Origin: Bacteroidota bacterium
GTDB taxonomy: Bacteria; Bacteroidota; Bacteroidia; Bacteroidales; FEN-979
Reading direction: 5' to 3'
Length of the DNA stretch: 64,000 nt
Assembly: GCA_043810345.1 (NCBI GenBank)
Contig: JBDROF010000043.1
Coordinates: 1,112 to 65,111, forward strand
Below, piece by piece: positions 60,876 through 61,513 of this stretch (position 1 is the first letter of the stretch; the number at the start of each line of letters is the position of its first letter). Made by a program: the position numbers and the translations under genes. Below the pieces are notes generated by a model, which was not told the DNA's origin, ran no database searches, and worked only from the letters and a program-made list of their open reading frames with translations.

Positions 60876-61418
60876 TCAAAAATTGCTCTGAAAGTCTGCA
60901 AACACCGGCGCCACCATATCCTTCGGTGAGATCACCGGGTCCTTGATTCCCCAATCTATATTCAGGTCCGGATCATTCCACCGGATAGCGCCTTCCGATT
61001 CTTTATTGTACACATTTGTGCATTTGTAGAAGAAGATCGTATCATCTTCCAGGGTCAGAAACCCATGCGCAAAACCGGTCGGAATCCAATACATCCACTT
61101 GTTATGTCCGGATAAAACAATGGAAGACCATTGACCATACGTTGGCGATCCCTTCCGGATATCCACCGCCACATCCAACACCGACCCGCGCATCACTCTC
61201 ACCAGTTTCCCCTGGGCGAACGGAGGATTCTGGAAGTGTAATCCCCGCAGCACCCCTCGCTTCGACTTCGATTCGTTGTCCTGTACAAAGGTCACATCAA
61301 CCCCATGAGCCAGGAACTTCGCCTGGTTAAAGGACTCAAAGAAATAGCCCCGCTCATCCTCATACACATCCGGCTTGATGATTAAAAGACCTTCCAGCGG
61401 TGTCTTTATAATTTCCAT
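60876..61418 (-). CDS. rfbC: dTDP-4-dehydrorhamnose 3,5-epimerase
   Basis: 180 aa. DERGYFFESF, RGLHFQ and the cupin core GFAHGF. Confidence 0.92.
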   Translation of the reverse strand: MEIIKTPLEGLLIIKPDVYEDERGYFFESFNQAKFLAHGVDVTFVQDNESKSKRGVLRGLHFQNPPFAQGKLVRVMRGSVLDVAVDIRKGSPTYGQWSSIVLSGHNKWMYWIPTGFAHGFLTLEDDTIFFYKCTNVYNKESEGAIRWNDPDLNIDWGIKDPVISPKDMVAPVFADFQSNF

Positions 61419-61513
61419 TATTTCGCTATTTCACCATTTCACCACATCACCACCGCACCACCGCACCACTGCACCACCGCACCACTGCACCACCGCACCA
61501 CCGCACCACCGCA
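61418..61513. repeat. 12 tandem octamers forming the whole lpdA-rfbC spacer
   Basis: ttatttcg ctatttca ccatttca ccacatca ccaccgca x2 ccactgca ccaccgca ccactgca ccaccgca x3. Bounded by the rfbC start codon (61416-61418) and the lpdA stop codon (61514-61516). Confidence 0.97.

Follow-up and report, generated by a model that had tools for sequence, protein, structure and literature searches.

A graded octamer repeat array fills the lpdA–rfbC spacer of a Bacteroidales genome from stop codon to start codon

The repeat array described here separates lpdA from rfbC on the minus strand of the window, the 64,000-nt stretch of a contig (JBDROF010000043.1) from an uncultured Bacteroidota bacterium that was analysed as a whole. 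The upstream cistron lpdA (61514..62923), encoding dihydrolipoyl dehydrogenase (TIGR01350, 549 bits versus a cut-off of 409), ends with TAG at 61514-61516 (CTA on the plus strand), and this stop position is kept in relatives. The downstream cistron rfbC/rmlC (60876..61418; dTDP-4-dehydrorhamnose 3,5-epimerase; TIGR01221, 245 bits) begins with an ATG that appears as CAT at 61416-61418 on the plus strand; because at least 120 RfbC homologues have 180 aa at 100% coverage, the annotated start codon is taken as the true one. The closest LpdA proteins are 77-78% identical and the closest RfbC 92%, all of them from Bacteroidales/Bacteroidota metagenome bins. The gap between the two genes measures 95 nt and is occupied in its entirety by 12 in-register octamers (61418-61513), which read on the plus strand, from 61418, TTATTTCG, CTATTTCA, CCATTTCA, CCACATCA, two copies of CCACCGCA, CCACTGCA, CCACCGCA, CCACTGCA and three copies of CCACCGCA. 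The original prediction had described exactly this filling, the order of the units and the placement of both flanking codons; inspection by eye and by script, together with the minus-strand open reading frames (ORFs), bore out all three.

On the coding (minus) strand the array takes a more natural register, T[AG]G[CT]GNNN, and runs TAGTGCGG, twice TGGTGCGG, TGGTGCAG, TGGTGCGG, TGGTGCAG, twice TGGTGCGG, TGGTGATG, twice TGGTGAAA, TAGCGAAA and TA before the ATG, with the first three bases of unit 1 forming the lpdA stop codon TAG. Lag-8 identity of the spacer is 0.875, whereas 10,000 shuffles averaged 0.34 and never exceeded 0.50; the Tandem Repeats Finder (TRF) score is 122; and the window has 28 occurrences of three consecutive units of the form CYAYNNCR, of which 100 shuffles gave none. 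The 12 units of 8 nt thus qualify beyond chance as a head-to-tail simple repeat of 5-11 nt units, and they are contiguous, with none of the unique spacers between units that typify clustered regularly interspaced short palindromic repeats (CRISPR). GC content per unit climbs from the start side to the stop side (2, 2, 3, 4, 6, 6, 5, 6, 5, 6, 6, 6; Spearman 0.78; permutation p = 0.002). The stepwise AT-to-GC grade claimed earlier is hence real, although its steps are not strictly parsimonious, position 5 passing through T, A and C; likewise, the general form CYAYNNCR suits the array except for unit 1 (TTATTTCG), which departs from it at the first base.

The G-rich block (61450..61516, minus strand) consists in the sense register of TAGTGCGG, seven units of TGGTGCGG or TGGTGCAG, and TGGTG, the first five bases of unit 9. 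It is followed by two transitional units (61434..61449; CCATTTCA and CCACATCA on the plus strand, ..TGATGTGG TGAAATGG.. in sense), which are separated from the two end types by Hamming distances of (2,3) and (4,2). A comparable transition between unit types is held by the spacer of L084/L172 (L-numbers denote metagenome loci of related Bacteroidota compared with the window). The A-rich units (61419..61433, minus strand; sense ..TGAAATAG CGAAATA) directly precede the ATG, so that the translation initiation region of rfbC is itself repeat sequence, as had been proposed. An assembly artefact was rejected, since a typical read exceeds the array in length and the independent assemblies L084 and L172 carry homologous graded arrays. 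The resemblance of the GGTGG in the unit to E. coli Chi (GCTGGTGG) was set aside as well: 5 of 8 bases match, and other family members lack GGTGG.

The history of the array can be followed in orthologous spacers. The gene order DUF–lpdA–rfbC–SLT–uvrA, then LOG–RsfS–FtsH, is shared by relatives whose RfbC is 86-92% identical and whose third codon positions match the window at only 56-61%, and the lpdA–rfbC–SLT–uvrA order is conserved in at least 10 lineages. Across this set the lpdA–rfbC spacer ranges from 22 to 126 nt and from 0 to 12 units. The G-rich block is missing in L161 (TAGTGAAA TGGTGAAA TAGTGAAA TGGTGAAA TAGCGAGA T ATG), in L163 (TAGTGAAA TAGCGAAA TGGCGAAA T ATG; 2.5 AAA-type units) and in L164 (TAG GAAG, four copies of TAGCGAAA, then 22 unique nt); relatives with A-rich units only carry 2.5-4.5 copies of TRGYGAAA. 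The identical spacers of L084 and L172 hold a second graded array, from AGG to AAA type (TAGTGAGG TGGTGAGG TGGTGAAG TGGTGCCA TGGTGATA TGGTAAAA, TAGCGAA three times, TAGCGAAA, AT, ATG). In the identical spacers of L083 and L170, G-rich (TGGTGCAG)-type units give way to unique sequence that contains a hairpin; L173 and L175 have a short G-rich stretch and then AAATCG heptamers, and the L082 spacer is free of repeats. Since the same A-rich units adjoin the rfbC start in L161, L163, L164 and L084, they are, on this sequence comparison, the shared core, and the eight CGG/CAG units of the window represent a lineage-specific expansion on the stop side.

Unit type and copy number also change at other orthologous arrays. 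After the PFK gene, L177 has (TAGCGAAA)x4 where the window has (TAGTGAGG)x3. The DUF gene that precedes lpdA ends in a GAAAT-type array in L082 and L083 and in a GAGGT-type array in the window. The 13607 array is missing from the orthologous spacer of L176-L179. Of the (TGGTGCAG)x5 array after DUF5686, L178 has two copies, and at that site L176 shows a terminator-like hairpin instead. Such switching between AAA and AGG/CGG types, together with the common frame and the in-register joins, supports the view that the apparently separate AT-rich and GC-rich families are one evolving lineage, as the original prediction had suspected. Copy number and unit variants differ among relatives at a single locus, as in variable-number tandem repeats (VNTRs). 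At the same time, exact TAGCGAAA is retained at many loci in at least four lineages, at third-position identities of 0.56-0.61, while a neighbouring heptamer array upstream of lpdA drifts. This heptamer array immediately precedes the T-run and the -7 box from which lpdA would be transcribed, at a position kept in four lineages with a drifting unit: (TATCCGG)x4 at 62962-62991 in the window and, with approximate coordinates, (YATCYAG)x~14 at 8380-8470 in L161, (CATCYGG)x4 at 8510-8545 in L163 and (CNGTCAT)x3.5 at 8480-8510 in L164.

Within lineages no copy-number variation was seen among 2-3 consensus assemblies each, none from the window's own species, a comparison of low power: the spacers are identical in L164, L165 and L167, in L170 and L171, and in L084 and L172. 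Copy-number polymorphism inside a lineage, the mark of contingency simple-sequence repeats, is therefore not observed at this power. This bears on the idea that the array is a copy-number rheostat or contingency locus, in which octamers frequently gained and lost would tune or switch the expression of rfbC, a surface polysaccharide gene, by analogy with the 7-bp repeats of Haemophilus influenzae hmw. RfbC does act in cell-surface sugar synthesis, copy number goes from 2.5 to 12 between lineages, and heptamers in a 5' untranslated region (5'UTR) offer a precedent (PMC8262952, PMC12721329). Identical spacers in independent samples speak against such a role, as does the placement of the octamer family beside the housekeeping genes uvrA, lpdA, PFK and PriA, which makes it not surface-specific; phase variation was rejected for analogous repeats on the same ground (Rehm 2015, PMC4692102). 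We regard a rheostat as very improbable.

A search of the window and close relatives for runs of at least three T[AG]G[CT]GNNN units returned nine family arrays in the window (beginning at 8480, 11024, 13607, 16076, 35084, 56869, 60847, 61421 and 63036) and 10 more in the relatives. The family is clade-specific and fast-evolving. Of its nine window arrays, eight point the same way as the genes beside them, and they do so also between 8 and 19 kb, where the genes change strand; orientation therefore follows transcription rather than replication. Among 96 units the 3-nt tail varies (AAA 43, AGG 23, CAG 9, CGG 6), whereas T1, G3 and G5 are invariant and positions 2 and 4 show transitions only, a core that the search pattern itself required. 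AT-rich and GC-rich octamers join in register within several arrays, and in every mixed array (five in the window, L161 5047 and L084/L172) G-rich variants lie upstream and an AAA unit, usually exact TAGCGAAA, lies most downstream.

By analogy with known systems, these regularities could mean that the arrays are periodic platforms for an oligomeric nucleic-acid-binding protein reading T.G.G or U[AG]G every 8 nt, as trp RNA-binding attenuation protein (TRAP) does on (G/U)AG, HutP on UAG triplets, or S1/Csp in the proposal of MacGregor, and that such a protein would control coupling, processing or transcription of the neighbours. The invariant core, the persistence of exact TAGCGAAA beside drifting heptamers and the transcription-linked orientation all fit this idea, and binding of S1, Csp or Csr has been proposed for TAACTGA heptamers (MacGregor 2015, PMC4679880). 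On the other hand, no candidate protein came to light; copy number varies from 2.5 to 12 or more, and the array is missing altogether in L082 and, at the 13607 site, in L176-L179; the contexts are varied (upstream of -7 boxes, in 5'UTRs, between cistrons, at 3' coding ends); and many unrelated unit sequences coexist in one genome. A binding platform thus seems unlikely to us. A related long shot is the notion that the family, instead of being filler, would form a transcription-oriented periodic recognition code, with a U.G.G frame every 8 nt, a tunable tail, a fixed UAGCGAAA at the 3' end and an oligomeric factor as its reader. Were this true, a candidate clade-specific RNA- or DNA-binding factor would set the passage of transcription or translation from gene to gene in a phylum without Shine-Dalgarno coupling, and the G-to-A grade would reflect an intrinsic 5'-to-3' layout of the arrays instead of chance mutation.

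The stop-to-start polarity extends beyond the lpdA–rfbC spacer. Of the 21 co-directional spacers, in the window and related loci, in which arrays take up half the length or more, 19 differ in GC between their two halves, and in 17 of these the higher value is on the stop side; the mean GC difference is +0.114, compared with +0.028 in 427 repeat-free spacers (Mann-Whitney p = 4e-4). Six of the 21 belong to the window and there is orthology among some of the loci, which makes the effective sample smaller than the nominal one. Further related loci point the same way (8 positive, 2 negative, 2 tied). The earlier claims that AT-rich units face the start and GC-rich units the stop, and that the same unit order recurs at 35045-35144 and 60844-60875, are both upheld. 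Another possibility is that the array is neutral filler extending up to constrained sequence, its grade and polarity being by-products of flank composition with no role in rfbC initiation. Arrays do abut stop codons, -7 boxes and starts and even enter 3' coding ends, their presence or absence differs at orthologous sites, and graded arrays of other units exist (L170 10544-10655). Neutrality fits poorly with unit sequences that are conserved though silent sites are near saturation, with the strong sense orientation, and with a polarity far stronger than in repeat-free spacers; we consider it quite improbable.

The nearest Bacteroidetes-type -7 box upstream of rfbC on the coding strand, TACCTTTG at 62944..62951 (minus strand), lies 21 nt upstream of the lpdA ATG; this box and the lpdA leader are conserved in L163 and L164, and many genes of the window have a TAnnTTTG box 20-30 nt before their ATG. 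No TAnnTTTG match was found on the minus strand across 61419-62943 (near-consensus variants were not searched), and a scan of the spacer (61419-61513) found no sigma-70-like or terminator-like site, in agreement with the original statement that it has no room for a conventional promoter. A hairpin is predicted there, but no T-run follows it as it would in an intrinsic terminator. Rfam 15 gave no match at the gathering score in the window and none with E <= 1 in 60700-63200. In view of the missing promoter box, sigma-70-like site and terminator, the simplest inference is that lpdA and rfbC probably share a transcript. A further idea was that Rho avoidance (rut orientation) would confine the C-rich orientation of arrays to operon ends. 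Mean sense GC skew is -0.17 for arrays with a -7 box after them and +0.05 for those without, a difference that is not significant (p = 0.15). C/T-rich sense arrays also occur inside probable operons of relatives: CTTCTAA/CCTCTAA heptamers are kept in the HAD–ThrC spacer of L161 (742-766), L163 (2283-2320) and L164 (4103-4132), a counter-example to the G-rich sense tendency of arrays.

Bacteroidetes initiate without Shine-Dalgarno sequences, and A at -3, -6, -12 and -13 together with low structure favours initiation (Baez 2019, PMC6847099). The rfbC leader has A at -3, -12 and -13, its A-rich octamers placing AAA at -3 to -5, -11 to -13 and -19 to -21. In the minimum-energy fold, the 35 nt of the spacer nearest the ATG are predicted to be unpaired. 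From -20 to +3, the native sequence has a predicted unpaired probability of 0.45, which drops to 0.26 when every unit is G-rich and to 0.33 when the units run in reverse order. These features suggest that rfbC is probably translated from an A-rich repeat leader that lacks a Shine-Dalgarno sequence.

At the other end of the spacer, a long imperfect hairpin of -25.3 kcal/mol (z about -2.2 to -2.6) is predicted for the sense RNA of the G-rich block, in which UGCG and UGCA cores pair with each other alongside G.U pairs; the antisense strand folds to only -6.6 kcal/mol. With its G-quadruplex option ViennaRNA returned -25.5 kcal/mol, about equal to the plain hairpin, and a quadruplex was not favoured as the preferred structure, since only two-tetrad runs are possible: the eight G-rich units contain GG tracts only, in place of four or more tracts of at least three G and a preference for four units. 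The G-rich strand is nevertheless the coding strand and lies within 50 bp of the stop, as in known post-stop repeats. A model in which this block acts as sense RNA structure past the lpdA stop, either a G.U hairpin or a two-tetrad quadruplex, would have it protect the lpdA 3' end, or partly terminate or attenuate transcription and so lower rfbC relative to lpdA, like repetitive extragenic palindromic (REP) elements and other intercistronic stabilisers. Besides the strand asymmetry, the model can draw on the (UGGUGCAG)5 array after the DUF5686 stop, which folds to -17.2, with a canonical hairpin and T-run at the same position in L176, and on GC-rich palindromes after other stops in L178. In the window and 160 related loci, 40 of the 213 arrays with a stop within reach begin no more than 3 nt from it, and stop-abutting arrays have G>C on the sense strand in 48 cases versus 14; G-rich heptamers elsewhere are concentrated 0-50 bp past stops on the coding strand (Rehm 2015, PMC4692102). 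Yet the hairpin is absent from the orthologous spacers of L161, L163 and L164 and weak in L084 (-11.4, z -1.1), and is therefore not a conserved property of the locus; no U-tract follows it, the G-runs are GG and not GGG, and AGG-type units, being without C, pair weakly. We judge this RNA-structure model rather unlikely, although the predicted fold of the G-rich block could matter in the window's lineage. Conversely, a general absence of structure was rejected as a property of the repeats, mean fold z-scores being -1.6 for repeat-filled and -1.8 for repeat-free spacers (p = 0.57).

Taken together, we favour, at a probability of roughly 0.55, a slippage-driven, clade-specific octamer array in an operon spacer, with retained A-rich units serving as leader and a young G-rich expansion from the stop side. 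In this reading a simple-sequence, VNTR-like array of the sense family T[AG]G[CT]GNNN would grow and shrink within the operon by slipped-strand mispairing or local duplication, filling intergenic space that selection leaves free. The ancestral spacer would have been a short TRGYGAAA run from the lpdA stop codon to the rfbC ATG; a G-rich derivative, with CGG or CAG as NNN, would then have arisen in the window lineage and been amplified on the stop-codon side, so that the stepwise grade would mark the junction between this young block and the retained A-rich units. The latter would persist by the start codon because Bacteroidia initiate without Shine-Dalgarno sequences and need an A-rich, weakly paired leader, and rfbC would be read from the lpdA transcript because the spacer has no promoter of its own. 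The anatomy of the array, its place in the family, the sense orientation, the history read from orthologous spacers and the lack of promoter and terminator motifs are seen in the sequences themselves; co-transcription, slippage as the generator and initiation-region selection as the cause of polarity are what we infer from the pattern.

Several observations weigh against this account. The retention of TAGCGAAA, and of the T.G.G frame, across lineages whose third positions are only 56-61% identical is not predicted by pure slippage and drift, and the strong sense orientation of the family is left unaccounted for. An AAA unit is most downstream even more than 80 nt from the next start codon (array 63036-63091), so initiation-region selection cannot be the whole cause of polarity. 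The leader itself is imperfect: it has G at -6 and upstream AUGs at -19 and -29, though AUGs are avoided near Bacteroidetes start codons (Baez 2019, PMC6847099), and A at -3 is found in just three of nine orthologous leaders. The in silico differences in accessibility are modest, and spacers filled with repeats do not, as a class, show less structure than those without. Finally, a promoter with a non-consensus box could lie inside the lpdA 3' end.

The remaining family arrays show the same frame in varied settings. On the minus strand, the array in the rfbC–SLT spacer (60847..60870) reads TGGCGAGG, TAGCGAGG, TAGCGAAA, and that at 35084..35139 repeats the grade with TGGTGAGG twice, TGGCGAGG, TAGCGAGG three times and TAGCGAAA. 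A -7 box (TACCTTTG, 35152-35159) lies 13 nt past the upstream stop and 12 nt before the latter octamers; if this box is active, the roughly 115-nt 5'UTR of the next gene would be nearly all repeats (35045-35139). The array at 63036..63091 (minus; TAGTGAGC, TGGTGAGG, TAGTGAGG.., TAGCGAAA) encodes the last residues and the stop of ORF 63073-63516, whose octamer-encoded end ..YSELVR* corresponds in the L082/L083 orthologue to ..YSEIVK*, encoded by the A-rich version of these units. Also on the minus strand are an array of seven AAA-type units only (13607..13662), ending 4 nt from a TAAATTTG -7 box; (TGGTGCAG)x5 followed by TGGTGAGG at 11024..11071, starting 4 nt past the DUF5686 stop; and a short array of TGGTGCCG twice and TGGTGCCA at 8480..8503. 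After the PFK stop, the plus-strand array at 16076..16099 (TAGTGAGG twice, TAGCGAGG, then AAGCGAAA) is in sense for plus-strand genes. The only antisense member, (TAGCGAAA)x6 on the plus strand at 56869..56916, marks what is probably the end of an operon, with the uvrA stop on one side and the following -7 box (TATATTTG, 56855-62) on the other; its sense RNA would have C>G and be U-rich. A role in Rho loading was weighed for this array, but the skew comparison across arrays given above was not significant.

Octamers are part of a wider repeat population. TRF reported 35 rows (overlaps included) of period 6-10 with at least 2.5 copies in the 64 kb, and the 14% of the window that long ORFs leave free contains 80% of the array bases, a distribution typical of a genome-wide non-coding population; related Bacteroidota loci bear arrays too, with period 7 the commonest and many beginning right past the lpdA stop. 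Other units in the window include CCTCGAC heptamers inside the end of ORF 34068-35039 (34071-34113) and two long arrays of unrelated units: (TGGCAATGA)x15.8 at 14914-15055, which stops 8 nt short of a TACCTTTG box that precedes the PFK gene, and (CAGTCCA)x15.7 at 23224-23333 in a divergent intergenic region. A second cross-lineage family, GACGTRR heptamers, overlaps or follows stop codons in the window (14850-14889), L176 (4853-4974), L172 (1856-1927 and 2324-2416) and L170 (10544-10655), the last of these grading stepwise from GACGTGA x4 through GATGTGA x2 to GGTGTGA x2. In L178, post-stop GC-rich palindromes (GGGCGGGTTCCAAACCCGCCCC; 5462-5632, 6608-6755) replace tandem arrays at several spacers, and in L176 a canonical hairpin and then a T-run follow a stop at 10503-10545. 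The region 6001-8000 of the window has a low GC content (0.34, versus about 0.48 for the window) and several large ORF gaps. Some short-read contigs begin within the (CGAAATAG)n array that precedes rfbC (L166 7440-7523, L168 1-54, L169 1-54), and one such contig joins the (CGAAATAG)n array to a different upstream gene, which suggests that the repeats break or chimerise metagenome assemblies.

The array fits a known class of element, the intergenic simple repeats described in other phyla. In the catalogue of long simple sequence repeats (LSSR 5-11, named for unit lengths of 5-11 nt), heptamers of non-pathogens predominate (Mrazek 2007, as summarised in PMC4679880). As far as that summary describes them, they resemble the window arrays in their tandem 7-8 nt head-to-tail units beyond chance, their mostly intergenic, scattered placement in non-pathogens and their proposed origin by slippage; Bacteroidota are not among the repeat-rich genomes the summary highlights (PMC4679880). 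The window family differs in its 8-nt fixed frame with a variable 3-nt tail, its sense orientation and its stop-to-start grade. Sense orientation and such a grade have, to our knowledge, not been reported for this class, and a limited literature search found no description of the octamer family, of a fixed frame with variable tail or of a stop-to-start grade. Short tandemly repeated repetitive (STRR) heptamers are reportedly also known from cyanobacteria, said to go back to Mazel in 1990.

G-rich GGGNATC and GGGGA(C/T)T heptamers of Xanthomonas and Nostoc lie within 50 bp past stops on the coding strand and vary between relatives (Rehm 2015, PMC4692102). The likeness is close: coding-strand G-rich units 0-50 bp past or overlapping the stop, between co-directional ORFs, at the same gene pairs in relatives, with extensive variation in length and sequence and no tie to surface genes. 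Those repeats, however, have GGG or GGGG tracts and a preference for exactly four units that suits a quadruplex, whereas the window array has GG runs only and 2.5 to 12 copies, and grades into A-rich units reaching the next start. TAACTGA heptamer direct repeats, the only Bacteroidetes heptamers that the limited literature search turned up, occur just upstream of starts in Beggiatoaceae, Cyanobacteria and five Bacteroidetes (MacGregor 2015, PMC4679880). They too are short tandem units a few nt upstream of starts in forward orientation, share spacers with other heptamer arrays and have close relatives with shorter, repeat-free spacers at the same place; they differ in unit sequence and length and usually have 2-6 copies, and neither gap filling from stop to start nor grading is reported for them. 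The H. influenzae hmw1A/hmw2A 7-bp repeats (PMC8262952, PMC12721329) are likewise non-triplet tandem repeats in the leader of a surface-linked gene, whose copy number could in principle tune expression via 5'UTR structure, but they are hypervariable in populations and contingency-specific, in contrast to the recurring identical alleles and housekeeping flanks of the octamers. REP palindromes, bacterial interspersed mosaic elements (BIMEs) and intrinsic terminators share the position directly after the stop, a predicted sense hairpin in the G-rich block and palindromes at some orthologous sites; the window array, by contrast, is a direct repeat with no U-tract, and its structure is not conserved among orthologous spacers.

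Intergenic tandem repeats of 7-8 nt have been catalogued in several bacterial phyla, where they are common. The lpdA–rfbC locus is unusually clean: nothing but repeat separates two conserved housekeeping genes, one end of the repeat adjoins a stop codon and the other a start codon that lacks a Shine-Dalgarno sequence, and its history is readable from orthologous spacers in about ten related lineages. Sense orientation, a conserved unit frame and stop-to-start polarity together narrow the explanations to processes linked to transcription or RNA. If the repeats are only filler, they call for caution among annotators and assemblers, as the ends of coding sequences can be made of repeat and short-read contigs can be broken or chimerised by it. 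If they do supply the initiation region, they would represent one way for Bacteroidia to build intercistronic leaders.

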